Positions 1 through 19,375 of a stretch of DNA of 64,000 nucleotides are shown here, in pieces. Positions within the stretch are counted from its first letter, which is position 1, and each line of letters opens with the position of its first letter. Location of the stretch: IMG/VR virus record IMGVR_UViG_3300037454_000603, positions 79,646 through 143,645 of that record. One strand, written 5' to 3'. The position numbers were made by a program, and so were the translations under genes. A model generated the notes under the pieces. It saw only the letters and a list, made by a program, of their open reading frames with translations. It was not told the DNA's origin and searched no databases. Origin of the DNA: a virus. Its lineage: Duplodnaviria; Heunggongvirae; Uroviricota; Caudoviricetes.

Positions 1-838
1 TCTTAATTTTAACCCAAACAAGATTGTTGTTATTAACTTCAGAACCATCTATAACTTCAACTTTAGTCTTATAAGGGAGTGTTCCTTTTAACTCTCCATT
101 TGGAGTTGAACGATAGTTAAGTCCATCTTCATAATTTACATAGAAAGTTGAATAAGTAACTTTCTTTTCTTCTTCTTTGGGCTTAACTTCTTCTTTAGGC
201 TGTGCCGCAGCCTCAAAGTCTTTATAGAAATATGACATATCAATTCCATTTGTAAATCCGTTTACCTTATAAACAGAAGTAAATTGCCAAGCATCGTATG
301 TGTTAATAGAAGGTTTACTCTAAGCAGTACCATCATTTGTTCCATACTTTGCACACCAAATAGAATATTTTTTGATTTTATCAAAATCAATTTTATTATT
401 AAACCAATATTCGCTCATGTAAACACCTGGAACATAGCCAAGTTCTTTAATTCTTTCACAGAAAGCAACTGCAACTTCTGTCCAAGTAGCAGTAGTATTG
501 GCATCTGCACGTCCAGTCTTATTTGGGGCAGTACTTTCTTCTATATCAATATAAATTGGATAAGTAGGTTTAAAATTCTTAATTAAGCCATATGCGTAAT
601 CTGCCTCAGCTATAGCTTCTTCTTTATTCTTGGCCTAAGTAAAGAAATAAAAACCATATGGCTTCTTATTATCTTCCATTCCCTTAACGTGCTTATCAAG
701 CTAAGAGTCTTTACATAACGTGCCCGCGGAGCCATATCCACGATAACCAATTCTTATAATTGCTCCATCAATTTCTTGTGCCGCGGCAGCATAGTTAACA
801 TTGGTTTGAAATTGAGATATATCAATAATCTTCTTCAT
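1..838 (-). CDS. GH25 muramidase endolysin with C-terminal SH3-like region (runs off window edge; TAG=Gln)
   Basis: ATG at 838: MKKIIDISQFQ...IRIGYRGYG...YFFT(TAG)AKN...YIDIE. GH25 catalytic D and DxE are present; in-frame TAGs at 701-703 and 635-637, the latter at the conserved Q of YFFxQA; no TAA/TGA down to position 1. Confidence 0.88.
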
Positions 839-1064
839 TTATTTTTCCTCCTTTCAAATATTTTAAAATTTCGTCAATTTTCTAATCCTATTTAAGAAGA
901 TGCTATTCAATTCGATTTATAACTTCATCCTAAACACGATTAGAATTGTCCATTACTTTTTGTAGGTCACCCTAAGTTACATTCTCTTCATAGTTCATTA
1001 AACCAAAAATAAAAGAAGCAACTGCCAATGAGTTCCAGTAATTTTCATTCTTATTCATACTCAT
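822..1064 (-). CDS. small protein with N-terminal hydrophobic segment and coiled coil, upstream of lysin (possible holin-like; 5 TAG)
   Basis: GGAGG RBS; MSMNKNENYWNSLAVASFIFGLMNY...RIEQHLLKQDQKIDEILKYL when TAG=Q; ends at TGA overlapping the lysin start. Confidence 0.6.
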
Positions 1065-1119
1065 AAAGATACCTCCTATTTTAAAAGTAAGGAATTATAT
1101 CTTTATTTCTAATAATTTA

Positions 1120-1148
1120 ATTATACTACAAATATTCGAAGAAGTCAA
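1120..1148 (-). promoter_or_regulatory. sigma70/SigA-type promoter
   Basis: TTGACT-N17-TATAAT on the minus strand, upstream of the 1064 gene and lysin. Confidence 0.7.
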
Positions 1149-1309
1149 ATATAAAAATAAGAAGCCACCTTCCGATGACTTCTCCTTCTATTGTTTATTG
1201 ATTATACAACAACTGAATAATGCTAGAGGGAATTGCATTATGAGCCAGACAGTTGTTTATAATTTTTCTATAATTAAAGTAAAAAATAAAATAAAAAGTT
1301 CTAAATTTT

Positions 1310-1531
1310 TTAGTCTGAAATATCTTCGTAAATTTCGTTTTTGTATTTATCTTCTTTTATATCGGTTTCAAAATTATTTAAATTATTTTTTAAATAAACT
1401 GCACAACTTATATTTGCTTTTAATTCAGCAGAATGTCCATTAATTTCCATTATGTAACCATTCGGATAATCGTCATGCATTAACTCAATAACTTTTTGAA
1501 CTGCTTCATTGTATTCTTCCCAACTATGCAT
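1310..1531 (-). CDS. hypothetical protein
   Basis: 73 aa ORF, GGAGG RBS, TAA stop. Confidence 0.65.
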   Translation of the reverse strand: MHSWEEYNEAVQKVIELMHDDYPNGYIMEINGHSAELKANISCAVYLKNNLNNFETDIKEDKYKNEIYEDISD

Positions 1532-1532
1532 A

Positions 1533-1829
1533 TTATTCCTCCCACAAATTTTTTATTAATTCAGTTCCGTTAATTTTAAATTCTTTTGGAAAAGAAACTT
1601 TAGTTTGAGTTTCAAAAACAACTTGGTCTGGCGGCACAGTGTAAACCATCAGTCTACATTTTTCAATTAACTCACGCCGCCCTCTGAAATATTCTTTTAA
1701 ATCTGACAAATTTGTAAAAGCCCAAAAGTAGTTTGTTTCTTTAAAATCAGTACTTATACCTCTTGAGTTACCATTTATATCAAAGAATGGCCCTGCACCA
1801 TCTTCTCTCTCAAATCTATATAGTTTCAT
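1533..1829 (-). CDS. hypothetical protein
   Basis: 98 aa ORF, GGAGG RBS, downstream of promoter 1854-1882. Confidence 0.7.
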   Translation of the reverse strand: MKLYRFEREDGAGPFFDINGNSRGISTDFKETNYFWAFTNLSDLKEYFRGRRELIEKCRLMVYTVPPDQVVFETQTKVSFPKEFKINGTELIKNLWEE

Positions 1830-1853
1830 TGGCGCCTCCTTTCATTTATTTAT

Positions 1854-1882
1854 ATTATAATAAAATTCTTTTAAAAAGTCAA
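1854..1882 (-). promoter_or_regulatory. sigma70/SigA-type promoter
   Basis: TTGACT-N17-TATAAT on the minus strand. Confidence 0.7.
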
Positions 1883-1906
1883 ATTACTGTAACTAAACAA
1901 AAAGAA

Positions 1907-1931
1907 AAGCTATGGAATTAAACCATAGCTT
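1907..1931 (-). terminator. rho-independent terminator
   Basis: AAGCTATGG/CCATAGCTT 9-bp stem followed by a T-rich tract on the minus strand. Confidence 0.6.
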
Positions 1932-2100
1932 TATTTAGCATTAATCCGAAGTTGGATATCTATACTTTACAATTGATTCTATCAAGGAAATCGAATGAAT
2001 TAGTTGAAATTATATGAATATTTGGTAGATTAACATATTCAATAACATTTGTTAGATTGAGTTCATTATAGATTTCGTCGTCAAGAATTTGAATAATCAT
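1918..2100 (-). CDS. hypothetical protein (1 TAG)
   Basis: MIIQILDDEIYNELNL...; GGAG RBS; open to TAA with TAG=Q. Confidence 0.45.
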
Positions 2101-2240
2101 TCATGGGTCTCCTTTCTTTTTTTCTTTGAGTTAATTATAAAATAAAAAAGAAAGAAAATCAAGAATTTGGGCTTTAGAGTTAAATTATTGATTTTTAGAA
2201 TATTATAAGATATTTATAAATACATTTTAAATAAATATTT

Positions 2241-5237
2241 TTAATTTTGCTTTACCCACTGCGATATGCTTTGTATAGTCATATCACTAGGTTGAATTGT
2301 AGTGTTAACCGCTAGCGTATTACTGCCATTGACGGTAGGAATACTGACGCTTGTACCGGTCTTTGTAATCTCGTCAGCGTAACTGCCTATTTTCATCAAC
2401 GGTTCATTGATGACTGCAGTTTCAGGTTCTGCGAGAACGTACCAAACAGTTATAGGAGTACCGTTTGCATACTGCTGTGCAAGGTAGGTTTTGAAATCGG
2501 CAACTGTCGATATACCACTTACACAAAATATGATATAGCGATTAAATGTCCTATTAGATGCACCGCCGCCCTTTCTTGCGTTTGCACCTATCTCGCCTGC
2601 GTATAAATCCGTATATGGTACAATTTGCTATGTAGGTGTTGCCCTCATCTTAAAATGATCACTAATATAGTATGGGTATGGTATATCTCTCATGTCAACG
2701 TCATAGTCAATGATATCGGTCATGCCTAAATCGCTGTACAGGCATGCAAAACAGTACGCACCTGATTCAAGAGTAGATTCGGTAACACTCTACACTGTTT
2801 CCTCTCCCGTTAACACCAGCTTTTTTATACGCCTTGTTGATACCACTGACCCCAGATAGATGTTTGTGGTTGCATTGCTGTATGGCTGATATGGGAGAGG
2901 GGTGGAGCCGCGGTTGAGCATGATTTCAGATAAGGTGATTTGATTTCCGCCACCCGAACCATAACCAAGGTACAGATAGTCGTTAGTGCTTGCAACAGTG
3001 AATGTTACCTTAGTCGTTCCAGGTGATGATAGGTTGTTACCGTTGATACTTACCCCTCCGACATTCGCACTCGCCCTAACGTTACCGCTGGTTGTAGCAT
3101 TGACTTTTATTGAAAACGTAAAAGTCTTGCCAATATCCGATGCTGTGAATGGCGTTGGGTGCGTGGTATAGAAGTTATTTACAGTACCTTGAAAAGTGTC
3201 GTCTATTTGCTTATACGCGCTGTATACAGTGTCAGCATCAAACAAATTCCCAGACTGCACATTCACAGGTATCTTGTATCCATACGGCTCATATGGTAAA
3301 GCGGTGCTGCCTGCGTTGAGCATAGTTTCATAGTCTGCTGGCGTATAATCGCTACCATTAGTGCGTAGTCCTATTACCAGTATGCCATTGGCATCAGCCG
3401 TCCTCGTGATAGAGTGATTCGGATACACTCCGTTAGAAGCCGTTGAAAAAGATTCTCCGATATTACCTATGACAATTAATGCGCCGCCATTATACAACGG
3501 ACAGTTACTTGACATGGTGTATGTTGTATTCGGCTCTAATGTTATTTGTTTAGTGATAAAACTTGTTTCCCCTACGGAATAATCACTTACATTAAACGAG
3601 TTCCCTGTTTTTTCACCACATCCACTTGGATTAACGGGTGAACTCGGTGTTGGTGTCGAAGCTTGCACAGTCTGTCCGCTCATGCTCCAGTCCCTCAGAT
3701 TCTCGCCATCGGACTTGAACGTAAATGGCGGAACACCAGAAATATTAGGCGTATATTCATATAAAGAGCAATTTTCCCAAAGTCCTTTTTTAATACTCAT
3801 TGAACTTGGCTGAATTGTTGTATTCACCATTAAAGTGTTACTTCCCTCTACTGTTGAAATATTGACACTTGAATTAGTGAGATTTATTTCGTCTGCGTAT
3901 GAGCCAATTTTCATTAACGGTTCGTTGACGGCCGCGGTTTCGGGTGTTGCTAAGACATACCAAATGGTTACAGGAGTTCCTGCTGCGTATTGATCAGAGA
4001 AATATTGTTTAATTGCAGCGCCAGTCGTATATCTATTGTCAAAGACAAAAACTGATGAATTATTAGGTGATGATATATGATATATATTACCATCAGCGTT
4101 TTGATATGTGTAATTATAGTGGGTACAATATCCAATTGTATAGTCTGCGGTAGTATACAAAGAGCTAATCTGAAAACGTGATAATCCGCTAACTTTTGAA
4201 TATGTTACCGACTCATTTCCCGTCAGCACCAACTTCTTCACGCGCCTAGTCGATGATGACGTACCAAGATAGATGTTTGTGGTCGTGTTGCTGTAGGGTT
4301 GATATGGGAGAACGGTAGAACCTTCAACAAGCCATACCTGAGCCGTACCGTCAAGATACTATTGCGCATTGGTTCGCTCAGTAAAAATACCTATCTTAAC
4401 CACTCCAGTTGAGTCGGTAGTCACAGTTACGGGGTGGTTTGTAAAGACAGTCGAGGACGTTTGCGAGCTGTTGAAATACACAGAACGATATGCATCCGCT
4501 GGAGTTGCTGTTTCGTTGCCCGTACCGTTACTAATCATCGTGTATGCGGTGTTCGGTTTAAGCTGTAATTCAAGAACATGAGGAAAAGAGTAATTTGTTA
4601 TTGTGCCAGCAGGAGCATTTTTTAGGGCATTGAAGTCTAACAAATTTCCAGACTGTACATTCACAACAGGTATCTTATACCCGAATGGCTCATACTGTAA
4701 AGCGGTGTCGCCTACATTGAGCATAATAGTTGATACTATAGTTGTTTTCTTTAGAATTCGTATATATGCAGCGCCGAGAGTTGCACTATTCACAAACTAA
4801 GTATCAGATTTAAGACCATTCTTATCCCACGCACCGTCATTGTAAGTACCCAGATATGTCTTATTTACATCATATCCCACGAACCAAACAGATGTCGAAC
4901 AGGTATATGTTTGCGTTGTTTCGACTGGTATATAGTCGGATAACCGATAGTCGTCAGCAGAAAACGTTGCTCCTGTAGCCCATGTAATACGCTCATTAGT
5001 CACAGTTGCCGCATTAAACAAATTTCCCGTTCTTTCACCAACACCATTTACATCAACAGGTGAACTCGGCGTTGGTGTACTCGCTTGCACAGTCTATCCT
5101 GCTATATTCCAATCCTATAGAACTCCTCCATCTGACTCAAAGCTAAATGGAGGTGTTCCAGAAAGTTCCTTTAAATCATATTTCTTGGGCTAAACTGTCT
5201 ACCAACTAGTCCCATTAAATTTCTTAAATTCTTTCAT
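2241..5237 (-). CDS. tail fibre/receptor-binding protein, 998 aa, made of two tandem ~500-aa units (TAG=Gln)
   Basis: Track ORFs 4797-5090, 4359-4793 and 2790-4241 share one frame and are separated only by TAG. Duplicated scaffold motifs: QTVQASTPTPSSP, YEPxGYKIP, TNIYLG..STRRxKKLVLTG, WYVLAxPET...EPLMKIGSYADEI. Confidence 0.75.
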
Positions 5238-5241
5238 TCTC

Positions 5242-5934
5242 TCACCATCCCACGCCTATCGCTCCATTTGGTATTGTACCTGTGGGTTCTGTACTACTTA
5301 CATATAATCTTCCACCGCCAGTTAGTTCAATATAATTGGTAGCTGAGGAAGCAACACCAGTTAATTTTGTTTCAGAAGTACCAATTGAAGTTTTCTGCGC
5401 CGCGGTCACAAACTTATTAGTATGATCCGTATCATCTACCAAATCGGAAGAAAGCTTATGGGTAGAGTCAATTGCATCTTGCTTTCCATTCCAAGTTTGT
5501 TTTTCAGAAGTGGTAGTAAACTTATTTGTACTAGTCAAATCATTAACCAAATCTGCATCTAACTTATGGTCAGTATCTACTTTATCTTGTTTTGCCGCAT
5601 TAACAACTTTATTCTAAACAGGATTCTCTGATGTTGTAGACATAGCATCGTCTATTTCAACAGTCATTGTACCTAAATATTCCCAGCCATTTGCTGTGTA
5701 AACATATTCAACTTTTTCTTCGTTTTGCAAGCCAACAATATAAACATCGCCCTCATTGGCTGTTGCAGGAAGGTCTTGAACCGTATCAACTGTACCGGCT
5801 ATATGCATTGGGTTTGCAAGTCCTAGATCAGACCAGGACTTGTTACCGCTTAGTTCAACACCATTAATTTTGGGCTTATTTTTGAGTTCAGAATATTCTT
5901 TACTGAACTCCACATCAAAAGGATTAAACCACAT
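5242..5934 (-). CDS. tail fibre/baseplate-associated protein, 230 aa (1 TAG)
   Basis: ORFs 5614-5934 and 5242-5550 join at SENPV(TAG)NKVV, matching the common phage tail motif NPVQNKV; internal repeat HKLxxDLVxD...TNKF. Confidence 0.7.
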
Positions 5935-5945
5935 TAAACCTCACC

Positions 5946-6242
5946 TCAGTAGATAATATAGAACTTCATATCTGAAATGCTTTCGTCGAAAGTTAGAGAA
6001 TGAATTTCTAAGAAGTTTTGAGAATCGAGATAAGGGGAAAAGAATTTGCCAGTTGAAGGAACTTCAAGTGGACTTGAATTTATTTTAAAAGTTGTCCCTG
6101 CCGCCGCCTCAAAAGCAACGAAATCAAGAATAAAACGAGAAGATTGAATTCGATGTTCCTCGTTTAGGATTTTATAGATTTTTGGGACAAGGTCCTCATT
6201 AGCTTCTGCGCTAAGAGTTATTGTTCTATATACAGGAATCAT
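5946..6242 (-). CDS. hypothetical virion-module protein
   Basis: 98 aa ORF, GGAGG RBS, TGA stop. Confidence 0.65.
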   Translation of the reverse strand: MIPVYRTITLSAEANEDLVPKIYKILNEEHRIQSSRFILDFVAFEAAAGTTFKINSSPLEVPSTGKFFSPYLDSQNFLEIHSLTFDESISDMKFYIIY

Positions 6243-6259
6243 AGTATCCCTCCTTTGAG

Positions 6260-8044
6260 TTAAACTGCCGCAGAACGACAGTAGATTTCATTTCCATTAC
6301 CGACCGTTATCGGGTTGGTTTGTGCAAGCCAATCTTCAATGGTTGCATACCAAGTATATGTACGTGTTTCGTCTTGAGAAGTTGATGGAAGAGCTGTGCC
6401 GTCGGCGTAGGTTGCATATTCAACATAGTTATACGACGATGGACTAGGATAATTAGACGCTTTTGTGTATGTGATATAAGTGCCAAGCGGGATGTAAATT
6501 ATGCAGTCTGTAGGGATGCTTGTCCACGCACTGAAGCTTGACACCGTTGGCGGGGTTTCGCCTATAAATCTTATGTAGCCTAGGCCATAGCAGTTCTGGA
6601 ATGCATAATGACCTATGCTTGTAACCTTGCTCGGTATGGTTACAGAGGCTAATGCGGAGCTGTTGGAGAATGCATAATTATCTATGCTTGTGACACTGCT
6701 TGGTATAGTTATAGAGTTTAGCGCAGAGCAGTCCTGGAATGCATTGCCCTCTATCTTTGTAACGGTGCTCGGTATGATTATGGACGTTAGCGCACGGCAT
6801 CCAGAGAATGCAGTACTACCTATGCTTGTAACGTTGCTAGGTATAGTTACAGAGGACAGTGCATAACAGTTCTGGAACGCATAAGCACCAATATCTGTGA
6901 CACTGCTCGGTATGGTTATAGCGTTTAGCGAAAAGCAATTCTGGAACGTGTATGTGCCTATGCTTGTGACCTTGCTAGGTATAGTTATGGAGGTTAGTGC
7001 ATAGCAGCTAGTGAATGTACTCGCACCTATGCTTGTGACTTGGCTAGGTATGGTTACAGAGGCTAGTACATAGCAGCCGCCGAATGCACTAGCGCCTATA
7101 CTGGTGATGCTGCTTGGTATAGTTACAGAGGCTAGTGCAAAGCAATTCTGGAATGTATTAGTATTTAGGCTGGTAACATTATTCGGTATGGTTATGAATT
7201 TTAACGCAGTGCAGCCATAGAATGCATAACTACCTATGCTTGTGACGCTGCTAGGTATGATTACGGACGTTAGCGAATAACAGCTCTGGAATACCTTATT
7301 ATCTATGCTTGTGACATTGCTGCCAATACGCACCTCATGAACTGTTCTCATATAGACAGCGTTTTGGTCGGTGGTTGTTCTGTTTGCTGTTAACAATAGA
7401 GGTCCTTTAGCGCCATTGTGCAAAAAACTCATACTGCCTGTAACCTCTAGTGCAATAACATAATCGCCAGCAGTAGCATACTTGTGAGATTTGAGTACTG
7501 CTGCAGATACCTTAGACCCAGTCATAGTATCATGCTCTGAACCATCACCCCAGTCAACATCGACTGAACCGTTAATACCTAATCCAAGATACGGTTCAAG
7601 CCTACCATCACTAAGAGTGATATAAATCCTAGTCTTGCCGTCTGAGGTATTATACATCTGTCCAATATTAAGTTTACCATAATTAGCCACATAAGCCTTA
7701 GCGTCTGCTAAAGACCAGTTCCAGCCTTGAGCAGTTAAACCTTCGTGGGAAGGATTAGCAGGCATTGCAGATAAGTCGGCAAACTCTGAAGCAGAATAGT
7801 TATAAAGAATTGTGCCGTCATAGTCATAAAAAATAACGTCCATTGCTGAACCAGAAGATGAGCCTGAGACATCTACAGTAATAGTAGAATAGCCATCTGC
7901 GTTTTCTTCTTTAGCAGAATAAGTTCCATTTTCTGTAATTGTTTTATTTATCAACTCTGGGCCGCCACTTTTATCAGAGTAAGTTTTTGAAAAATAAGAC
8001 GGCTCTAGAGTACTATCGAATCCTTGATTTATTAAAGGAAACAT
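6260..8044 (-). CDS. BspA/TpLRR-type leucine-rich-repeat protein, 594 aa
   Basis: 11 tandem 23-aa repeats, consensus LxSxTIPSxVTSIGxxAFxxCxA; N-terminus shared with the two upstream genes; no TAG. Confidence 0.9.
   Translation of the reverse strand: MFPLINQGFDSTLEPSYFSKTYSDKSGGPELINKTITENGTYSAKEENADGYSTITVDVSGSSSGSAMDVIFYDYDGTILYNYSASEFADLSAMPANPSHEGLTAQGWNWSLADAKAYVANYGKLNIGQMYNTSDGKTRIYITLSDGRLEPYLGLGINGSVDVDWGDGSEHDTMTGSKVSAAVLKSHKYATAGDYVIALEVTGSMSFLHNGAKGPLLLTANRTTTDQNAVYMRTVHEVRIGSNVTSIDNKVFQSCYSLTSVIIPSSVTSIGSYAFYGCTALKFITIPNNVTSLNTNTFQNCFALASVTIPSSITSIGASAFGGCYVLASVTIPSQVTSIGASTFTSCYALTSITIPSKVTSIGTYTFQNCFSLNAITIPSSVTDIGAYAFQNCYALSSVTIPSNVTSIGSTAFSGCRALTSIIIPSTVTKIEGNAFQDCSALNSITIPSSVTSIDNYAFSNSSALASVTIPSKVTSIGHYAFQNCYGLGYIRFIGETPPTVSSFSAWTSIPTDCIIYIPLGTYITYTKASNYPSPSSYNYVEYATYADGTALPSTSQDETRTYTWYATIEDWLAQTNPITVGNGNEIYCRSAAV
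6580..7335 (-). repeat. 69-bp coding tandem repeat (LRR units, about 11 copies)
   Basis: periodic acctatgcttgt(g/a)ac...ggtat(a/g)gtta(c/t) on the + strand. Confidence 0.85.
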
Positions 8045-8112
8045 TTTAATTCCTCCTTTATGAATTGTTAAATATAAATTCTAAGGTTTACTGTTTTTGA
8101 TTAATTATGAAA

Positions 8113-8631
8113 CTAATTTATGCAGTATAAAATTATATCAACGCCTTGATCTTGAGCGATTATAAATGTTAAAAACATAGACGGCATATCGCGACCAACA
8201 ATATCAAAACAGTTTGTTTGTAAAACAATTGCATCAGTCAATACTACGTCCGTTCCTGGACCAAGATATCTTATGTCGTCTTTAAATGAATAAACTATAT
8301 TTAAAGGCTGCTCGTAACCATAAAGGTTAACTTCACCGATAATGCTTTTACCAGAATTAAAAGCAGAGGCTATTTCCGCATACGTATGATTAATAGTTGG
8401 GTCACTAGGTTCTGGAACATTAATCACAACTTCATACGTTTCAGGCACTGGTGTCGCTACATTAACTGTAACACTAGAATATCCATCAGCGTTATCGTCC
8501 ACTGCATTATATGTATCATTTTCAGTTATAGTTTTACTAATAAGAGTAGGCTCAGAAATAGTCTGCTTTGTTTCTGTTAAATAAGCAGGTTCAATTGTAC
8601 TGTCCTTGCCTTGATTTATAAAAAGTTCCAT
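8113..8631 (-). CDS. virion-accessory protein with shared N-terminal tag
   Basis: MELFINQGKDSTIEPAYL...LISKTITENDTYNAVDDNADGYSSVTVNV, similar to the N-terminus of the LRR gene. Confidence 0.75.
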   Translation of the reverse strand: MELFINQGKDSTIEPAYLTETKQTISEPTLISKTITENDTYNAVDDNADGYSSVTVNVATPVPETYEVVINVPEPSDPTINHTYAEIASAFNSGKSIIGEVNLYGYEQPLNIVYSFKDDIRYLGPGTDVVLTDAIVLQTNCFDIVGRDMPSMFLTFIIAQDQGVDIILYCIN

Positions 8632-8725
8632 TTTGACCTCCTTTAATATTTAGCCGTCCAGAATGACGGTATTTATGTTGGATGTGCTCTTTTCTTTCTG
8701 ATACTATTTTTGAAAAATACACGTT

Positions 8726-9157
8726 TTATTTTTGATTATTATAAAGTGAAACAAAAAACTCATCAGTAAATGACTCGGGATTATTCCATATCACAAGTAA
8801 ATATACATCAACTACTGTTTCCGATACTTCAGCGGTAATTTTACATTCTACAGCTATATTACCACTGTTGTTGATAAAACCATTTCCAGCAATAACAGAA
8901 GATATTACCATTCCTTCTGGATAAGTAAAATCAAATACGGGAACTAAATTTTTACCGCTATTAAGAGCCGCCATTAATTCAGCGTAGGTTTTTGTTGCAC
9001 TTGTGACCTCGGGCCTTCCCATTTCAGGGAGGTTTATTGTAAATCCAACCTCGAACGTCTCACTAGGCGCAGGGGTTGTACCATTCTTAGAGCCCATTTC
9101 TGCCAAATACCCAGGTTCAACAGTACTATCTTTACCCTAATTTATAAAAAGTTCCAT
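8726..9157 (-). CDS. virion-accessory protein with shared N-terminal tag (143 aa; TAG at codon 7)
   Basis: ATG 9157: MELFIN(TAG)GKDSTVEPGYL, aligning with MELFIN(CAA)GKDSTIEPAYL of the neighbouring gene. Confidence 0.75.
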
Positions 9158-9163
9158 CTTCTC

Positions 9164-9850
9164 TCACCCCAAATTTTTCTTTCCTTTAACTTGTGCCGCG
9201 GTAGCAGCCAAATCCGCAACATTTACCTTTCCGTCTCCATTAACATCTGCTGCTTTCTATTGTTCTTCAGACAAAGGCTTCTTGCCCTTAACGTGTGCGG
9301 CAATCATTGAAACGTCTGTTACATCAACTTTTCCGTCTCCATTAACGTCGCCCTTAACAACACTTTCAGGCTCTTTATTATCTTCTTCGCCAAGAACCTT
9401 TGTTTGGTCTTTAGCTCTTAAAACTCCGAGAACAGGATTACAACCATCGTTAGCCGCGCTACTATTAAAATAATGTTTAACAAGTTGAGTTTTTTCTCTT
9501 TTTCCAAGAGTATTCTATTCCAAAGAAACAAACCAATCAATATTACCTTCACCATTTCCGATAGCAACGTGACCCCAAGTGCCGCCGCCCCAAATTACAA
9601 CGTCTCCTTTTTGAACAACGAGTTCTCTTGTATTTGGAATTCTATCAAAATTTTCAACTAATGCGGGATAGCTATAGAAATTGTTGTAAAGGTCTCTTGC
9701 ACCAGTGCACCAAACGCCAGTAATATCAAACAAATCTTTCCAATACTGGTCAGCAACGTCAACGCACTGATATCCTGCTACACCGTCATAATCAATTCCT
9801 ACGCCCAAATAAGCCTTTTCAAATTCATCGTAGCTATGATATTTACTCAT
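9164..9850 (-). CDS. CHAP-domain peptidoglycan hydrolase with C-terminal dockerin (228 aa; 2 TAG)
   Basis: CHAP motifs YQCVD, WGHVAI and LE(TAG)N = EQN; then GDVNGDGKVDVTDVSMIAAHVKGKK...AADVNGDGKVNVADL, a duplicated Ca-binding dockerin repeat; TGA at 9164. Confidence 0.85.
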
Positions 9851-10109
9851 TCGTCATAACCTCCTTTCCTATTTCATTAAAATATCGTTTTACTTCCTTG
9901 ACATCTTCTTCTTTTTCAATTAAAATTTTAACAAAAGAATTGATTTTAAAAGCTCCAGAAAGAAGGCCTATCATTGACTTTCCATTAATCATTCTCTCGT
10001 CTTCTGTTATTAAATATAAAGAAGAAGAAACTTTATTTAAATTCCAGTTTAATAGTGCCGCGGCACGACCCCATAGATTGGTATTTAACTTGTACTTAAG
10101 AGTATACAT
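9843..10109 (-). CDS. HPr-family (PTS phosphocarrier-like) protein lacking His15
   Basis: 88 aa; NLWGRAAALL corresponds to GLHARPAxxx, and INGKSMIGLLS to the Ser46 motif. Confidence 0.7.
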   Translation of the reverse strand: MYTLKYKLNTNLWGRAAALLNWNLNKVSSSLYLITEDERMINGKSMIGLLSGAFKINSFVKILIEKEEDVKEVKRYFNEIGKEVMTNE

Positions 10110-10146
10110 AATAATTCCTCCTTTAGGTCATAAACAAAGCAAAAAT

Positions 10147-10175
10147 TTGACTTTATTATTTCTTTATGTTATACT
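10147..10175 (+). promoter_or_regulatory. sigma70/SigA-type promoter with extended -10
   Basis: TTGACT-N17-TATACT with TGn. Confidence 0.65.
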
Positions 10176-10203
10176 TAAATAAAGAAAATAAGGGGGTTTA
10201 AAA

Positions 10204-11103
10204 ATGGATAAAGTACATAATAAACTTGCACATTATAATTTAAATTTAGATTATAAGGATTCTCGTGATATTGAAACTAAAACTAATCTTTTAATCAATA
10301 CCATTATAAATAATTTTGTAGATATTCTTAAATCTAAAAATTTAAATGAAGTAAACTTTGTTTATGAATATAATGATGATTTATTAAGTTTGATTGGATA
10401 TCATATTTTATTAAATATTCAATCAATTATACCAGAGTTTAATTTTAAACTTTATGGTAAAAAGAAAAGAACTAAAAAGTTTTTAGTTAAAAAACAAAAG
10501 TTCTGTTCTAAATGGGAATTAAGAAGAAAGAAAGAAAAGACTTTTCTAATTTCTAGTTTTAATCCTATTTATAAAGTAATTAATCAAAGATATTCATCTA
10601 ACGAAATAGTATCATTAAGATATGATTTATTAGGAAGGTTTACACCACAGGAAATACAAACTGCACAGCTATTTTACCATATTGGATATATAAAAAATGA
10701 TTTACTTTGTAAAAAATTTATAAAAGAAAGAGAAGATTTTGCCGCTTGGGTTGATAAGCCTGAACTTAAATCTAATGAAAATATTATAGACTATTATGGT
10801 TATGATTATCCTTCAAGAGTTATTGTAGCTTGGCTTGATGATGATATTGAAAATGATATAAGAATAATGCAAGATTTACAGGATGAGGAAGGTTTAGTTT
10901 TTTATTTCTTTGATAAAGAGCCTGAAATCCTTTTCGATACAACTTATAGTTACCTTATTAAAAGAAAAACTAATATACCGAGCAAAGTTTTTCTTAATAT
11001 TAATGAATATGATATACCAAGAATTTTAAAATATAAATATGGAAGAGATTTTATAGCAAAAGGAAATTGGAACATAAGAGATTACATGAAGTTGGAGGAA
11101 TAA
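10204..11103 (+). CDS. hypothetical protein, 299 aa
   Basis: long ORF, GGGGG RBS, TAA stop; no confident motif. Confidence 0.75.
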   Translation: MDKVHNKLAHYNLNLDYKDSRDIETKTNLLINTIINNFVDILKSKNLNEVNFVYEYNDDLLSLIGYHILLNIQSIIPEFNFKLYGKKKRTKKFLVKKQKFCSKWELRRKKEKTFLISSFNPIYKVINQRYSSNEIVSLRYDLLGRFTPQEIQTAQLFYHIGYIKNDLLCKKFIKEREDFAAWVDKPELKSNENIIDYYGYDYPSRVIVAWLDDDIENDIRIMQDLQDEEGLVFYFFDKEPEILFDTTYSYLIKRKTNIPSKVFLNINEYDIPRILKYKYGRDFIAKGNWNIRDYMKLEE

Positions 11104-11104
11104 T

Positions 11105-12697
11105 ATGAAAGTAGTTATAGTTAATGGTCAAGGTGGCGTTGGAAAAGCTTTAACAAATGATACCATTCTACCAACCCCAACTGGCCCTTGTGCCGTAAAG
11201 GACATAAAGGTAGGAGATTTTTTATTTGACCGAGCAGGAAAACCAACTAGAGTATTAGGCGTTTTCCCTTAGGGGGAACGAGAAGTTTATGAAGTTAGCT
11301 TTAAAGATGGTAGAAAAGTAAAATGTTCAAAAGATCACCTATGGAATATTCATAAGTAGAGTTGGCATCGTAAGTCATCAAAAGATAAATTTATGCCTTA
11401 CTCTACGTAGGATATTCTAAAAGAAGGAGTAAAGATTGATGACAGAGCAGGATATCGTTTTAGTATTCAATGCTCTGAAGCAGTAAGTTATAAGGAGAAA
11501 ACTTTAGACATACCGCCATATGTATTTGGGGCTTTTTTGGGAGATGGGTGCTGTACACAAAAAATACTTACACTGTCCTCTAATGACATAGAAATAGTAA
11601 ACAGAGTAAATGAACTATTGGGTAATAACGGTTATAAAAAAACAGAAGAAAATGGATATGGTTGGCGATTTTATTGTTCTAATAAATAGTATAATAGTAA
11701 TAATGTTAAAATGAAGTATTTTTAGACAGAAACTTTTTTTGAAAAGTATAAAAATAATATATGTTAGTATAGTTATAACAAATCTATTCCAGATGATTAT
11801 AAATATAGTTCATTAGAATAGAGATATGAACTAATACGTGGATTAATGGATACTGATGGCAGTATTGATAATAAAGGACGGACACGTTTTACTTCAGCTA
11901 GTTATTAGCTAATTTTGGATGTAAAAGAAATTCTAGGATCTCTGGGATATATTTCTACAATTCATGAAGATAAACGAGAGAATAAATATACTCAAGGTTG
12001 CTATGAGCTAGATATCAATATAGATAATAAAGAAAAAGAAAAGTTATTTTTTCTACCTAGGAAAAAAGATAGAGCAAAGAATCTTCCTAAATCTACTTTT
12101 AATTATCAAAGAACACGAATTGTAAATATTAAATCATTAAATTATAAAGCTCCTATGACTTGTTTTTTAGTTGATAATGAAGAACATTTATTTTTAGCTA
12201 ATGACTTTGTTGTAACCCATAATACTACGTTTGAAAACTTTGTTTATGATTATGGTTCTTAGTAGGGTTATCAATTTTATATAACCTCAATGGTTAGTTT
12301 TGTTAAATAGGAAGCAGAAAAACTTGGCTGGCGCGGCGGTAAGTCAATGGAAGATAGGCGTTTTCTTTCAGATTTAAAGGACGCTTTAGCAAAGTGGAAT
12401 GATAGTCCATTCTAGGATATAATTAATACAATTAATAAATGTGAAAATTAGAAATTTGATTTTATCTTTATTGACGCTCGTGAAGCAGAAGATATTGAGA
12501 GAATAAAAGAAAGCTATCCCAATGTAACAACTCTCCTTGTTAAGCAGCCGTCCTGTGATTTATAGACTTATGGTAATCACGCTGATGATGGAGTATTTGA
12601 TATTTAGTATGATTGGATAATTGAAAACAACGGGACTCTTGAAGAACTCCGCGCCGCGGCCCTAACATTCTATGAGGCTATTGCAAATGAAGAATAA
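11105..12697 (+). CDS. P-loop nucleotide (dNMP-like) kinase interrupted by an intein, 530-aa precursor (about 15 TAG)
   Basis: MKVVIVNGQGGVGK-[intein]-TTFENF...GWRGGKSMEDRRFLSDLKDAL...IDAREAEDI...IIENNGTLEEL; frame open except for TAG; TAA at 12695. Confidence 0.75.
11147..12223 (+). mobile_element. class 3 intein with LAGLIDADG homing endonuclease (359 aa)
   Basis: Starts ALTNDTILPTPTG (Ala1); block B KDHLW; endonuclease blocks FGAFLGDG and LIRGLMDTDG; block F MTCFLVDNEEHLFLA; ends VVTHN/T; inserted in Walker A between K and T. Confidence 0.88.
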
Positions 12698-13259
12698 TTT
12701 CTTAGCTACTGACCCATAGGCAGTTAATGATTTGCTTAGTAAAATGCCAGAACTAAGAGAAAGAGGATTAAAAGTTCTAGAACCCGCCGCTGGCAATGGA
12801 ATTCTTGCTGATAGGTACAAATTTCTAACTCGCAATGAAATAGATATGTTTGATATTGAGCCGCGGCGCGACGATATTGAACAATATGATTATATGAAGT
12901 TAGATTGTAGAGGAAAATATGATTTAATTTTAACTAGTTTTCCTTCTGAAATGGCGGATAAAAACAATCCAATTGGATATAGTTAGCTTTTAAGAAAAGC
13001 TTTAATAGATGTTAAATATGGTGGCTATGTTGCGAATTTTTAGAAGTTAGCACAATTGGAAAGCAAGTAGAGATATTAGGATATTTATGGAAAATATAAG
13101 CCATATAAGGTTTTGATTTATAGTAGGAGAATTAACTGCTATAAAAATGGGGATTTAAATTAGAAAGTTTAGGGCGCAGTTGCTTATTCTTGGCTTGTTT
13201 GGCACAAAGATGAGAATGGGTTTTTCTCGAACGAAACAAAATTGGATTGGATTTACTAA
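12687..13259 (+). CDS. small DNA N6-adenine-methyltransferase-like protein with degenerate catalytic motif (190 aa; several TAG)
   Basis: ATDPQAV...LEPAAGNG (SAM motif I)...DLILTSFPS (where NPPY is expected)...RRINCYKNGD...AVAYSWLVW. Confidence 0.6.
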
Positions 13260-13263
13260 AAAG

Positions 13264-13288
13264 AAAGAGTTGGCAAAACCAACTCTTT
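13264..13288. terminator. bidirectional rho-independent terminator
   Basis: AAAGAGTTGG-CAAAA-CCAACTCTTT between convergent genes, with A/T tracts on both sides. Confidence 0.75.
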
Positions 13289-13290
13289 TT

Positions 13291-14085
13291 TTATTCTTCA
13301 AAATAAACAACCTATTCAGTTAATATTCTTTCTTTCATTTCTGACGTAAGTTTACTGTCTTCTGCACTACTAAGCATATTTTCAATTTGTCCACCATCAG
13401 TATAATAGTTAACGGAAATTAAATTAAACACATATTTTTTTGTTCCTAAATTAGTAACATCTTCAAATAAACTATATTCTATTAAATTTAATTTTTCTAA
13501 CCAACAAAGACTTAATATTATTTTCTTATTATTATCAACTTTTTTACTCATTTTTAAAAGCTCTCTTAAGTCCTAAAGAGTAAAAAGTCTTTCTGGCGAT
13601 TTCATATAACAAAAATGTTCTTGCATATTAGCTAATAATAAATAAAGCTTCAGTTCAATTTCATCAACAAGAAAAACATTTTGTAGTTTGTCTACTGTTT
13701 CTCTAGGAATTATTCTATAAAGTTCTCCTTTTGGTATTTTGTAAAATCCACTTGAATACTTTTTTCTAGCCATAAATTTCTTATTCCATTCTTGCTGAGA
13801 GAGAAATTTGTCCTCAAAATCTTGCGGCCCCTAATACTAAATTAATTTATTGTCTTCAAGTAATTTCCAATATTTTTTAATTGTTTCTGAATGCATTCCT
13901 AATAATTCATGAATTTTATTGATTGAGAAGTTATTCTACATAAATTCACGAGGTTTATCTCTCCCGCAAAATTTTGAAATAGAAACTAAATAAAGATAGA
14001 GTCTCATAGAGTTCTACTAGACTTTTCTTTCTTCTGATACAATCGGTAGTCCATCTTTTTTAACCTAAGCTAAATTGTTTTTCAT
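13291..14085 (-). CDS. putative replication initiator with tandem winged-helix-like segments (264 aa; TAG=Gln)
   Basis: Joins track ORFs 13573-13773 and 13312-13551; two segments RLYLYL...FSINKIHELLGM...WKLLEDNKLI and KLYLLL...FTLQDLRELLKM...LCWLEKLNLI; next to the iteron array. Confidence 0.5.
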
Positions 14086-14151
14086 TTTATTCACCTCAAA
14101 GATAAGTAATTGAAGATTTTGATTAATCTAAAATTTTCATTCTTCATTCTC

Positions 14152-14263
14152 GTATACTAATTTTTCAAAAAAGTATACTAATTTTTCAATTTGGTTTACT
14201 CATCTTCAATTTGGTATACTAATTTTATCAATTTGGTTTACTCAATTTTCAATTTTGTTTACT
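14152..14263. repeat. iteron-like array, about 5.5 copies of a 20-22-bp unit (candidate origin)
   Basis: GTATACTAATTTTTCAAAAAA / GTATACTAATTTTTCAATTTG / GTTTACTCATCTTCAATTTG / GTATACTAATTTTATCAATTTG / GTTTACTCAATTTTCAATTTT / GTTTACT. Confidence 0.75.
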
Positions 14264-14399
14264 GGCGGAAGCATGTATATTATAAGTCTTACTTTCTTTT
14301 AAAAAGAAAGTAAGCAAAGAAATCTTCTTTGTCGGGCCAAAGAAGCAAAGCCCGCTCACCGCTTCGCGGCTCGCAGAAAATTGAGAAAAAAAGAAAATA

Positions 14400-14443
14400 G
14401 AAAATGTTAATACTTAGTATCAGAAAATGTTAATACTTAGTAT
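14400..14443. repeat. perfect 21-bp direct repeat, two copies (23-bp period)
   Basis: GAAAATGTTAATACTTAGTAT twice, separated by CA. Confidence 0.8.
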
Positions 14444-14535
14444 ACGGTTAAATTTTTCTGCTTCTTTTGCGCCGCCGCCTCAAAACTTTAGAAAAAATTT
14501 TAACTTCTCAATGGTAGGGCGGCACAGCGTAACTT

Positions 14536-14564
14536 TTGACTTATTTAAAAAATTTTATTATAAT
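14536..14564 (+). promoter_or_regulatory. sigma70/SigA-type promoter heading the replication arm
   Basis: TTGACT-N17-TATAAT. Confidence 0.75.
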
Positions 14565-14594
14565 TAAAACAAAAGAAAAAAGGAGGAAAAAAGA

Positions 14595-14825
14595 ATGAAT
14601 ATTATAGAAATATAGAAAGAACTTAGTGAACATTTAAAAAGAAATCCAACAATTGAAGAATTTTTCAAAAATTTACCAGACAAATATAAGGAAAAAGATT
14701 GGAGTTTAGTTAGTATTAAACTAACTAATAAGAATAAAATTGAAGCAATTTATTATAGTCCAGAGGATTATGAATCCTATTGCTTTGTAATAGGTGATAT
14801 AGGAAGAATGGAGGGAAAAGGTTAA
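14595..14825 (+). CDS. hypothetical protein (1 TAG)
   Basis: AGGAGG RBS, ATG 14595, open to TAA with TAG=Q. Confidence 0.6.
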
Positions 14826-14827
14826 AA

Positions 14828-15124
14828 ATGAAAATTAACCCCGTTTCGACAATGTGTGCAAATTGTGAATATGCTAGAAAAGCGGAAAACTCTGGTTATG
14901 TCGGATGTGCTGCCGCGCTTAAGAAGTTAAGAGAAGATTATTCAAGCGACACATTATTTTCTTTTTATGAAAGGAGCGTAATGTCGACTGGCTGGGTAGA
15001 TTTGAGAGCAAGACCCAATAGTAAAGATAGCAGCGGAATGATAACGAATGGAATTCCATGCTTTCATCCACAAGATAGTTGTAAGCATTTTGAAGTAAGG
15101 AGGGATTTGAGTGGCGATATATGA
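14828..15124 (+). CDS. Cys-containing hypothetical protein
   Basis: 98 aa; CANCEY...C...CFHPQDSCKHF. Confidence 0.6.
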   Translation: MKINPVSTMCANCEYARKAENSGYVGCAAALKKLREDYSSDTLFSFYERSVMSTGWVDLRARPNSKDSSGMITNGIPCFHPQDSCKHFEVRRDLSGDI

Positions 15125-15623
15125 ATACTTTACTGACGGAGCCGCGACAATGAAGAAGAAGAATGGTGAATATGTTAGAGAAGCTGGCGGTTGGGCATGG
15201 ATACTTGCTGATACTAAAGATAATAAAATATTGGAATATAAAAAAGGCAATTTTTTACAAACAACCAATAATTATTGTGAACTATATGCAATACATGACG
15301 TTTTAAAAACTCTTTTAAAAAATAATACTTCTAATTCAGAAATTTATATATATTCTGATAGTGCATATTGCGTAAATATGCTAAAAAGTGATGGTTGGAT
15401 TTATTCTTGGGCTAAAGCAAATTGGAAAAGAAAAGGCGGAAAAGATATAGAAAATTTATCTCTTATCCAGCACTTGTACATGGAAAAGAAAAATCTTGAA
15501 CAACTTTTAAATACTATAAATTTTATTAAAGTTCAAGGTCATAGTAATAATATTTTTAATAATATGGCAGATAAATTGGCAGTGGAGGCGAAAAAAGATG
15601 CGGCTATGGGAAAAATTTAGTAA
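15111..15623 (+). CDS. rnhA: ribonuclease HI
   Basis: FTDGA, TTNNYCELYAI, YSDSAYCVN and KVQGHSNNIFNNMADKLA motifs; final TAG directly followed by TAA. Confidence 0.88.
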
Positions 15624-16545
15624 AGAAGAATTAGAAGAAATATTTAAAAATTCTTTTACCAAAGCAGAAATTTTAAAAAAGTTAGGATATAAAAAACTTG
15701 ATAATACAAAACCAATATAGGACATATTAAATAAATATTAGTTTAATATATCACATTTATTGGGACCAGGCAATAGAACATCTATTCCAATGATTGGCAA
15801 AACTTTTGGCAGATTAACAGTCTTAGAAGAAGATGTCGAATATCCTGTGATACATAACTTAACTAAAGGAAAATATTATAAATGTCAATGCTCTTGTGAT
15901 AATAAAACAATCATAACCGCATTAGGAAACAATCTTAGAAATGGGTCTACTAAATCATGTGGATGTTTAATCAAGGATTTAAATAAATAGAATGTAATAC
16001 CAATGATTGGTAAACAGATTGGACATTTAACTGTTTTAGAAATAGATAATAACTATAAAATAAAAAATAATATCAAATCATCTTCATACTTTTATAAATG
16101 TAAATGTGATTGTGGTAAAATTATTACAATTAATGGTAGCGAATTAAGACGTAAAGAACACAACCAAATATCTTGTGGATGTATTTTATCTAAAGGAGAA
16201 TAGAAAATTAAAGAAATTTTATCATTTTTACAAATTAACTTTAAATAGCAATACACTTTTGAAAATTTAAAAAGTAATAAGGGTTACAATTTAAAATTTG
16301 ATTTTGGTATTTTAGACGCAAATCAAAAATTATTATGTTTAATTGAGTTTTAGGGAAAATAGCATTATGAAATAATACCACAATGGAAAGATGAAAATAA
16401 ATTTTTAATTTAGCAAGAAAATGATAATCTCAAAAGAAAATATTGTTAGAAATGCAATATTCCTTTGATAGAAATTCCCTATTGGGATTTTAACAAAATT
16501 GATGAAAAATATTTAAAGGAGAAGATAAATGAATATAGTAATTGA
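15598..16545 (+). CDS. putative homing endonuclease: two Cys-rich (RLTVL...CxC...SCGC) repeats plus a PD-(D/E)XK/Vsr-like domain (315 aa)
   Basis: Joins track ORFs via TAG; C-terminal KFDFGI...LIEF(TAG)GK(TAG)HY...LIEIPYWD matches the EFQGxQHY pattern. Confidence 0.7.
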
Positions 16546-17671
16546 TAATTTTGACTTTTTAAATATGCCCGCTATGAAGTATTGGTCGTATGCGTCTTCA
16601 ACCCCCATAAGTAAACGTAAAATAGAAGCAAAAGTGCTAGTTGAATCTGGCGAGTATTATGGAAGTATAAAGCGAGACGGCGTTTGGGAAATGATTATTA
16701 AAGATATGGAAGGCAATTTTTATGCTCGTAGTAGAACAGAATCTGTCAATGGAGGATTTGCAAATAAAGCAGATTTTATTCCCCAGATAATTGAAGAATT
16801 AAATTGTATTCCAAATGGGACAGTATTGATAGGAGAAATTTATTTTCCTAATAATGAAGGAAGTCGAAAAGTAACCTCTGTATTTAATTGTTTAAAAGAT
16901 AAATGCCTTGAAAGACAAAAAACAAAGGGATTTTTACATTATTATATATTTGACATATTAGCTTATAAAGGCAAGTCTTTAATCAATGAACCTTTTGAAA
17001 AAAGGATAAACCATTATCTTAATTATGAATTATTCGATGTATTGCAAAATAATAATTATATTGAGGTAGCAGAATATAAAGAAGGAGAAGAGCTTTGGGA
17101 ATTGTATGGAAGCACGATTGCTTTTGGCGGCGAAGGTATTGTAATTACAAAGAAAAATGCAGTTTATTCTCCAGGAAAGAGGCCATCTAAGGTTACATTA
17201 AAACTTAAAAAAGAGCTAGCTAATACAATAGATGCTTTTATTGATGGAAATTACAAGCTCCCAACAAAAGAATACTCAGGAAAAACTCCTCTTGACCAGT
17301 GGCCATATTGGTTTAATGAAAAAACAGGTCAGCGTTATACAAGTTGTCAGTATAATGATTACTTTCTTGGAAAACCATTAACTCCTGTTACAAAGCCTTT
17401 CGCGCTTGGATATGCTGGCTCAATATCCTTTTCTGTAATGAAAGATGGAAAACCTATCCATATTGGTTATATCAGTGGTGTACCAGATTCTATGAAATGC
17501 GGCATCGCTAAGGAACCTGAAAAATGGATTGGTAAAGTCTTTGAAATTTCTGCAATGATGGTTGAAAAAATTGATAATAACTATTCTCTTCGTCATGCAA
17601 TTGTAGTTCAAGAAAGAAAAGACAAAAGACCTGAGGATTGTGAATTTTCTCAAATAGAAAACAATGTATAA
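16529..17671 (+). CDS. lig: ATP-dependent DNA ligase
   Basis: KRDG motif I, LIGEIY, YYIFDIL, EGIVI and LKLK motifs. Confidence 0.85.
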   Translation: MNIVIDNFDFLNMPAMKYWSYASSTPISKRKIEAKVLVESGEYYGSIKRDGVWEMIIKDMEGNFYARSRTESVNGGFANKADFIPQIIEELNCIPNGTVLIGEIYFPNNEGSRKVTSVFNCLKDKCLERQKTKGFLHYYIFDILAYKGKSLINEPFEKRINHYLNYELFDVLQNNNYIEVAEYKEGEELWELYGSTIAFGGEGIVITKKNAVYSPGKRPSKVTLKLKKELANTIDAFIDGNYKLPTKEYSGKTPLDQWPYWFNEKTGQRYTSCQYNDYFLGKPLTPVTKPFALGYAGSISFSVMKDGKPIHIGYISGVPDSMKCGIAKEPEKWIGKVFEISAMMVEKIDNNYSLRHAIVVQERKDKRPEDCEFSQIENNV

Positions 17672-17712
17672 TTGAATTTTTTAGAGGAACTCAAATTAAA
17701 TATTACTTTATT

Positions 17713-17745
17713 ATAGAGGAAGAATTGTGGACTTCCTCTATTTTA
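17713..17745 (+). terminator. rho-independent terminator
   Basis: ATAGAGGAAG/CTTCCTCTAT stem followed by TTT. Confidence 0.65.
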
Positions 17746-17759
17746 CTATAATAAGAGAG

Positions 17760-18539
17760 GTGAATGAATTGTTTACTTTTAACCCCGCCAATATAGAAGA
17801 GCCGCCAGCCCATACAAAAATTTAGGTTCGTTGTTGTACTTGTGCCAAGAAAAATGTATGTGGACTTCGAACCGATTATTTAAAAACAGCAACCTTAATT
17901 GAGAATATTCTTGGTAATCCACAAAAAGATAGAGAATTAGTTTGCGATTATGGTTTCACTGGATTGGATTTTGAAGAACAAATTTTCCCAAGTCAAATTC
18001 AAGTTGAACCGCAAAAAGAAGGAGACGAACCCTTAACAGGAAACTACATTAATGCAAAATATAAAAATAAAGATAAAGTTAAGCTTCTTTATGAAGTGGA
18101 AAAATATTTTGTAATGTTTGTCTTCACTTGGAGTTATGAATTTGAACGCTATGAATTAACTTATAGCAAAGAAATTTATTTTGGAATTCCATTTACACTA
18201 TCTTAGGAGACGATCAATAGTTTAATAACTCCTCTTATACCCTGGAGAGAAGAACAGATTAGAAAAGAAGAAGAAGAAAAAGATAAGGATATTATTAATA
18301 CAACTTTATTTTCTTGTGATTTGCGTTGTAGTGAATATGAATTTGACAAGAAACAAAAGAACTGTGAGATAACTGAAGATTATCATCATATTGCAACATA
18401 TCATAAAGAAGATTCTCCCGTGCCATTGTATAAAGATTATTACTGGCCTCATCCAATTGCATATCCAGTCTTTATTCCAAGTGATGTCAAGCCTAACCCC
18501 GCGCCGCCCCACAGAAGAGGCGATGATTGTGACTGTTAA
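17760..18539 (+). CDS. Cys/Pro-rich hypothetical protein (259 aa; 2 TAG)
   Basis: GTG 17760 after GAGG; joins track ORFs 17964-18206 and 18321-18539 in one frame. Confidence 0.6.
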
Positions 18540-18954
18540 TGAACCTTCAAGGGGAGAAAGAAAAATAATGGAACTCCTACATTATGGAGGTCTGAAATTT
18601 CAAAGAGAAGTTAGCTTTGAAGGTTTAGTAGGTAAAAAGAAAGTTCCTCTTCGTTTTGATTTTGCAGTTTATAATTCACAAGGTTAGCTTTTAGTTTTAA
18701 TTGACTTCGATGGTGAATAGCATTTTAAATATGTTAAATATTTTCACAAAACAATAAGTGGATTTAAACGCGCGCAAGAGAGAGATAGAATTAAGAACAA
18801 GTACTGCTTAAAACATAATATACCTTTAATTAGAATTCCTTTTTGGGATTTAGAAGACTTAACCTTAAATAAAATTTTTGGTACCGCGGCGTATCGAGTT
18901 GAAAATATATATCATAATGACTATCTTGCTCGATAGTTGGAGGTGAGGAAATAA
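18523..18954 (+). CDS. stand-alone PD-(D/E)XK/Vsr-like endonuclease (143 aa; 3 TAG)
   Basis: SRGERKI...LRFDFAVY...IDFDGE(TAG)HF...ERDRIKNKYC...LIRIPFWD. Confidence 0.7.
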
Positions 18955-18955
18955 T

Positions 18956-19375
18956 ATGGCGGCATTTTTAGCAATTTTTGAAACTATTGGTTCTGTTGTT
19001 GGAATTATTATTACTTTAATTACTTTTTTTGGTTTGATTTCTAAAAAACCCAAGGAAGCTTTTAAGAGAATTATTAGAGAAGAAGTTAATAATGCTAATG
19101 AAGAGCTAAAACTAAAAATTTTAGAATTAGAATCATAGGCAAAAGAAAGATTTGATAAGATTGATATTAGAATCAATCAAGCAGATGAAACAGATATTGT
19201 TCTTTTAAGAAATACTATTACGCACATTTATATTAAGTATAAAGATACTAAACGAATTCCTCACTATGAGAAAGAAAATGTTATGTACCTTTTTACCCAG
19301 TATAAAATTTTAAACGGCAATTCGTATGTTGCGCAAATTGTAAAGATGATGGAAGACTGGGAGGAAATAGTATAA
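18956..19375 (+). CDS. membrane-anchored protein, holin-like (139 aa; 1 TAG)
   Basis: N-terminal TM (IGSVVGIIITLITFFGLI), coiled coil, C-terminal LRNTITHIY...YKILNGNSYV. Confidence 0.55.

Follow-up and report, generated by a model that had tools for sequence, protein, structure and literature searches.

What could a large phage gain from a protein folded like HPr when this protein lacks the very histidine that accepts the phosphate? This question is raised by a short gene on the minus strand of the window, i.e., the whole stretch of 64,000 nucleotides that was analysed (positions 79,646 to 143,645 of the IMG/VR virus record IMGVR_UViG_3300037454_000603). The initial annotation saw in its product, here named P0001, an HPr mimic with a tryptophan in place of the phospho-histidine and an intact Ser46 motif. 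The features of the locus are collected in Table 1.

Table 1. Features of the HPr-like locus, with positions counted from the first nucleotide of the window.
Feature	Position	Strand	Description
P0059-family orphan	5946..6242	-	98 aa
CHAP + dockerin endolysin	9164..9850	-	228 aa with TAG read as Gln
Histidine-less HPr-like protein P0001	9843..10109	-	88 aa, ATG start, TAA stop
Ser45 codon of P0001	9975..9977	-	
Arg15 codon of P0001	10065..10067	-	
Trp13 codon of P0001	10071..10073	-	
Shine-Dalgarno AGGAGG of the HPr-like gene	10117..10122	-	7 nt upstream of the ATG
Sigma-70-type promoter, TTGACT-17-TATACT with extended -10 TG	10147..10175	+	predicted to drive the divergent early gene
P0061-family orphan	10204..11103	+	299 aa, divergent; faces the HPr-like gene in 45/50 related loci
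dNMP-kinase-like P-loop protein	11105..12697	+	third constant member of the syntenic block

The HMMER alignment paired NLWGRAAALL of P0001 with GLQARPAALF of Crh, and MINGKSMIGLLS with KVNAKSIMGLMS of the same protein, so that Trp13, Arg15 and Ser45 correspond to His15, Arg17 and Ser46, respectively. Against the Pfam model PTS-HPr (PF00381), P0001 reached an E-value of 1.4e-4 and 22.2 bits, i.e., 0.8 bit short of the cut-off of 23, and a precomputed match to this model is present on most of its relatives. It also stayed below the cut-off of TIGR01003 (24.3 bits vs 47.9). The best NCBIfam model was the Crh-type NF010354 (E 2.5e-7), of which the equivalog cut-off is 123 bits; with 30.6 bits P0001 fails it, and therefore is not a Crh orthologue. 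When P0001 was compared to the PDB by phmmer, HPr and Crh chains were matched with E-values of 1.9e-6 to 4e-5, and all significant matches were HPr or Crh. A profile built from 53 relatives gave Crh in complex with CcpA (1zvv) as its top match (3e-13), followed by HPr proteins with E-values between 1e-12 and 1e-8. The AlphaFold2 model, computed with the family alignment, had a pLDDT of 95 and a pTM of 0.84, and displayed the beta-alpha-beta-beta-alpha-beta-alpha topology of HPr. The top Foldseek matches of this model were 39 HPr/Crh chains (TM 0.80-0.84, rmsd 1.4-1.9 Å), among which were 1KKL (HPr + HprK/P), 1RZR (HPr + CcpA), 1ZVV (Crh + CcpA) and 7FF5. Profiles and predicted model both indicate that P0001 is a true HPr-fold protein, with a match far beyond chance; the HPr mimic of the initial annotation, for which an HMM search and a structure prediction had been proposed as checks, is thereby confirmed. 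As the phospho-accepting histidine is absent, P0001 cannot transfer phosphate from Enzyme I to a sugar transporter, as had also been proposed.

This protein has many relatives. An exhaustive representative search yielded 54 of them (E < 1e-3), and a profile search extended the family to at least 501 clusters at 90% identity. Among the 120 matches listed and the cluster members that were looked up, all were located on metagenomic contigs of at most about 190 kb, and one family record bears the source name 'HPr-like phosphotransfer protein'. IMG/VR provided 42 loci, on contigs mostly of 120-186 kb. The HPr-like gene was not found by tblastn against GenBank phages, and no fused or longer form of the protein was found, which is weak evidence.

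Alignment of 207 members revealed that the position of His15 is occupied by Val (94), Leu (36), Thr (28), Ile (23), Trp (10) or Glu (6), and never by histidine (0/207). The tryptophan emphasized in the initial annotation is thus specific to a subclade and not a feature of the family. Its two other residue assignments hold for the family as a whole: the arginine equivalent to Arg17 is kept (Arg15, 201/207), and the serine targeted by HprK/P, Ser45 in M-I-N-G-K-S-M-I-G-L-L-S, is found in 206/207 members, the remaining one having a threonine. Ala17 (206/207), Asn42 (205/207), Lys44 (202/207), Gly48 (200/207) and Leu50 (203/207) are hardly less constant, so that Arg15, Ala17 and the N-x-K-S-L-x-G-x-L motif are conserved at 97-100%. 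The loop that precedes helix 1 has been remodelled: Asn or Asp stands in place of Gly13, and Pro18 is variable. Position 22 is aromatic in 197/207 members, whereas the cellular proteins compared (Crh, T. tengcongensis HPr and 7FF5) have a glutamine there. The dN/dS ratio was 0.13 against an orthologue of 84% identity (locus L001), and 0.08-0.15 in the other informative pairs. These alignments indicate that the entire Ser46 recognition motif and Arg17 are maintained by purifying selection. In this protein, which no longer transfers phosphate, constraint is strongest in the kinase-target motif and at Arg17, and the family can be described from its sequences as a branch of the HPr superfamily that is specific to phages, is under selection and has given up phosphotransfer.

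Among known proteins, Crh of Bacillus subtilis and other Bacillaceae (PDB 1K1C, 1MO1, 1ZVV) is the closest in kind. Both have the HPr fold, both lack His15 and keep Arg17, and the Crh motif V-N-A-K-S-I-M-G-L-M-S closely resembles that of P0001. Nevertheless, their identity is only about 25-29%, position 15 is Gln in Crh, Trp in P0001 and a variable hydrophobic residue in the phage family, the phage protein has other residues in place of Gly13 and Pro18 and an aromatic one at position 24, and Crh is encoded on the Bacillus chromosome whereas the gene described here is phage-borne. HPr of Firmicutes (PtsH; e.g., 3LE1 of Thermoanaerobacter tengcongensis, and B. subtilis HPr in 1KKL and 1RZR) is like P0001 in its fold, Arg17, Ala19 and the Ser46 region, but it has the phospho-accepting histidine that all the aligned phage members lack, and the phage locus presents neither ptsI nor an EII context; P0001 is, on these features, not a functional HPr. 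The best single-sequence match in the PDB was 7FF5, a 'phosphocarrier, HPr family' protein of Ruminiclostridium cellulolyticum (E 1.9e-6, 33% identity, TM 0.81). This protein of a cellulosome-forming Clostridium is likewise devoid of the histidine (Asp in this case) and keeps A-N-A-K-S-L-L-G-L-L-S, but it is cellular and has Lys for Arg17 and Gln at position 24. No paper on 7FF5 was found in the literature searched. In UniProt and BFVD, phage proteins automatically named 'PTS HPr' or 'HPr domain-containing' (Siphoviridae sp. ctCIv11, ct96x5) are also small HPr-fold proteins from uncultivated gut phages; they are distant from P0001 (19-20% identity, TM 0.67-0.70). No published study of phage HPr-like or Crh proteins was found in the literature searched.

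The HPr-like gene heads a leftward fibre/lysis module and is divergent from a conserved early gene. It has an equivalent of its Shine-Dalgarno sequence (GGAGG) at the same place in five aligned related loci. As initially annotated, its 3' end overlaps the start of the dockerin lysin, by 8 nt (9843-9850), and the lysin has its own AGGAGG Shine-Dalgarno at 9860-9865, inside the HPr-like gene. The same HPr-like/lysin pair occurs in L001-L003. In most related phages, the P0059 gene (~96 aa) is directly downstream of the HPr-like gene and is followed by fibre-like genes; in the window, the two are separated by the lysin and three fibre-type genes, and lysins and fibre-type genes are inserted there in the closest relatives too. 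As these insertions belong to a subclade, adjacency to the lysin is not a family trait, and the weight given initially to a coupling with the dockerin lysin has to be withdrawn. P0059 had no match in Pfam or PHROG. It carries a conserved motif F-V-G-F-E...P-S-T-G-x-F-x-T-P-Y, and a role as holin was ruled out by the lack of a transmembrane segment.

The genes of the module show other features. Three genes of the window (starts including 8631 and 8044) share an N-terminal tag M-x-x-x-N-Q-G-x-D-S-T-[IL]-E-P-[AS]-Y, which recurs as M-I-F-N-R-G-T-D-T-T-L-E-P-A-Y-F in the gene after the HPr-like one at L009:4271-4570 and L051:5271-5573. This recurrence in other phages suggests a clade-wide docking motif of fibre or decoration proteins. 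Also, a reverse-transcriptase gene (RVT_1) is located just downstream of the fibre genes at L007:7433-8035, and may be part of a diversity-generating retroelement that targets the receptor-binding module.

On the other side of the short divergent promoter region, the P0061 orphan is about 300 aa in relatives and is followed by the dNMP-kinase-like P-loop gene. P0061 had no match in Pfam and no sequence match in the PDB. Its AlphaFold2 model (pLDDT 82) has a weak resemblance to PP-loop ATPases of the NAD-synthetase/TilS type (TM 0.42-0.47), with a degenerate E-Y-x-D-D-x-x-S motif at the PP-loop position. The dNMP-kinase-like gene is split by a LAGLIDADG intein directly after its Walker A motif GGVGK, whereas intein-free orthologues have ~169 aa (e.g., L001:4497-5006) and match phrog_139 at E 9e-12. 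In run X3, one DNA contig passes directly from position 11136 to 12462 and may represent an intein-less allele. The possibility that this neighbour is a hidden protein kinase was rejected, as it matches ordinary phage dNMP kinases (phrog_139). A three-chain complex prediction of the HPr-like protein with P0061 and P0059 gave a score of 0.00, which weighs neither for nor against binding.

The promoter of the divergent gene has TTGACT/TATACT equivalents in L013 and L016, with AAGTCAA invariant in the alignment. The P0061 family is mostly TAG-free and sits behind this conserved sigma-70-type promoter. For the HPr-like gene itself, the window contains only weak promoter candidates; the gene has its own near-consensus TTGACA-18-TATAAT with TG at L013:3948-3977 and L016:3947-3975. 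In these two loci the gene has this promoter despite an in-frame TAG, so that the host polymerase would already transcribe it while its translation would have to await the code switch. The observation in the initial annotation that the gene of the window is TAG-free is correct but says little. P0001 contains no glutamine, which makes this status uninformative about timing or origin, and the orthologue has an in-frame TAG at 17 of the 42 related phage loci. These TAG codons and the position in the fibre/lysis module hint at a middle or late expression. In a bovine-gut metatranscriptome (run X2), contigs identical to parts of the phage were found, e.g., 2618-3081, 6628-7177 and 16543-17280 in window positions 1-20000; as the run consists of contigs only, neither the transcription nor the timing of the HPr-like gene can be read from them.

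The source record has 178,943 bp and is rated complete by CheckV. Long genes reappear all along the sequence when TAG is read as glutamine, and the phage is therefore TAG-recoded. We thus have here a large TAG=Q phage from the rumen which carries a small, conserved copy of HPr, and a clade of gut and rumen phages of ~120-190 kb, mostly TAG-recoded and SPbeta-like, has the HPr-like gene among its core genes. The window also contains a TAG-free gene for a DnaE-type polymerase of 1340 aa (42415-46437, plus strand). For this DnaE, the nearest counterpart is YorL from Bacillus phages of the SPbeta-like type, with 36% identity across 99% of the length, which would make the TAG-recoded phage of the rumen a distant relation of the SPbeta group. 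The lysins are modular, with CHAP + dockerin in the window and CHAP or GH25 with PG_binding_1 in L004. A Gram-positive host is plausible, given the YorL-like DnaE, these modular lysins and the Gram-positive type of the HPr motif. The DNA runs containing the phage sequence are bovine gut metagenomes, and a host among rumen Firmicutes seems likely from the sequence data.

A search for a phage-encoded HprK found none, and no full LacI-type regulator (LacI HTH, LacI sugar-binding domain) is encoded by the phage; the search for the LacI HTH gave two weak generic HTH matches, in small ORFs outside the window. Bacillus-type cre boxes WTGNAANCGNWNNCW and TGWAANCGNTNWCA were at chance level in the window, although the cre of the host may differ. 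In the reference-genome collection, with a narrower alignment, a single relative of the HPr-like gene was found, on a 172-kb contig binned as 'Melainabacteria'. This contig (CAKVIM010000004.1, our locus L051; 172,193 bp) is filed in a 'Candidatus Melainabacteria' MAG, is phage-sized and has the HPr-like/P0061/dNMP-kinase order identical to that of the phages. It is probably a mis-binned phage genome. Neither HprK nor a cellular HPr was found in the rest of its 2.1-Mb bin, and if this bin were the true host, the HPr kinase would be missing.

In structures of CcpA with HPr, the regulator is contacted chiefly through two residues of HPr, Arg17 and phospho-Ser46. Crh has no His15, but HprK/P phosphorylates its Ser46 and the phosphorylated form binds CcpA, while unphosphorylated Crh inhibits the methylglyoxal synthase MgsA (PMC9631020). 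HprK/P itself senses ATP, FBP and Pi (PMC8004850). We hypothesize that P0001 is a Crh-like protein which can be phosphorylated on its serine and which enters the HprK/P-CcpA circuit of the host as a co-repressor or a decoy. By analogy with Crh we give this reading about an even chance (0.5), and we favour it because the kinase-target motif and Arg17 are the best conserved parts of the family. The decoy or constitutive regulator of host sugar metabolism put forward in the initial annotation, which would act on CcpA by way of HprK/P, is likewise a reasonable extension of Crh biology (PMC9631020). In such a scheme, the host HprK/P, sensing ATP, fructose-1,6-bisphosphate and phosphate, would phosphorylate Ser45 as it does for Bacillus Crh. 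The regulatory face of the HPr fold (start of helix 1 and helix 2) would then engage a host partner of HPr. The likeliest candidates are a regulator of the CcpA type and HprK/P itself, for which P0001 would be a competing substrate. Either partner would lead to a bias of host carbon-status signalling during infection. The sequence would fit activation (co-repressor) as well as jamming (decoy).

Several observations weigh against this Crh-like reading: the absence of HprK and cellular HPr from the 'Melainabacteria' bin holding the related contig, the lack of HprK and of a LacI-type regulator in the phage, the absence of cre enrichment in the window, and the late-looking module, as reprogramming host transcription matters less at that stage. 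The remodelled active-site loop and the family-specific aromatic patch count against it as well, and the loop and aromatic position 22 could be the mark of a different partner. P0001 might accordingly be an adaptor for such a partner, possibly phage-encoded, with a phage-specific task connected with the fibre/lysis module or the divergent early genes; it might, for example, read the energy state of the host to time late functions, or chaperone or regulate a neighbouring product. The invariant position at the head of the module, facing P0061 and the dNMP-kinase-like gene in nearly all related loci and usually followed by P0059 and fibre genes, would suit an adaptor, as would the aromatic residue itself and the apparent translational coupling to the lysin in the window. 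Moreover, HPr is known as a hub that binds a large number of unrelated proteins by one and the same face, and complexes with Rsd, glycogen phosphorylase and FruR were among the fold matches. We consider an adaptor role unlikely all the same: the downstream neighbour is variable (lysin, P0059, fibre-tag protein, others), so that adjacency may reflect only a module boundary, nothing ties the HPr fold to virion assembly, and the conserved motif is exactly that of a kinase target. A variant joining both ideas, in which HprK/P would write the energy and carbon state on Ser45 and a phage-specific partner docking at the aromatic patch would read it, P0001 being then a phospho-sensor owned by the phage and gating the late fibre/lysis programme, appears to us a long shot.

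The serine would be dispensable if P0001 were a dominant-negative blocker of the PTS, binding Enzyme I or EIIA through Arg17/helix 1 and the helix-2 face and bringing phosphotransfer to a halt independently of serine phosphorylation. That the active-centre arginine is kept although the histidine is gone speaks for such a blocker, and so does the superposition of the predicted fold on HPr from PTS complexes. However, the most conserved segment, N-x-K-S-L-x-G-x-L, is of the Gram-positive kinase-target type and is not needed merely to bind Enzyme I, and the active-site loop has been remodelled at Gly13, His15 and Pro18. PTS transport also plays only a small part in many rumen Clostridia, and we regard the blocker as distinctly improbable. 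Lastly, the Pfam score 0.8 bit below the gathering threshold and the loss of the catalytic histidine could be taken as signs of a captured host gene which decays without function, or of a chance ORF. A family of at least 501 clusters, the conserved position, a dN/dS of ~0.1, the pLDDT of 95, near-invariant motifs and a strong Shine-Dalgarno sequence leave hardly any room for this, and conservation at the sequence level effectively refutes it.

In Firmicutes, carbon status is signalled above all by phosphorylation of HPr on Ser46. If the Crh-like reading is true, a large and strongly conserved phage family keeps the Ser46 signalling face of HPr and discards its transport function. No experimental precedent for a host takeover via catabolite control was found in the literature searched. 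Should P0001 instead be a phospho-sensor, it would constitute a new viral way of listening in on host metabolism, beyond the mimicry of Crh. P0001 is small and confidently folded in prediction, which makes the idea directly testable, and the question bears on carbohydrate fermentation in the rumen. If the Crh-like reading is true, big phages of the gut and rumen would routinely manipulate or monitor the catabolite control of their hosts.
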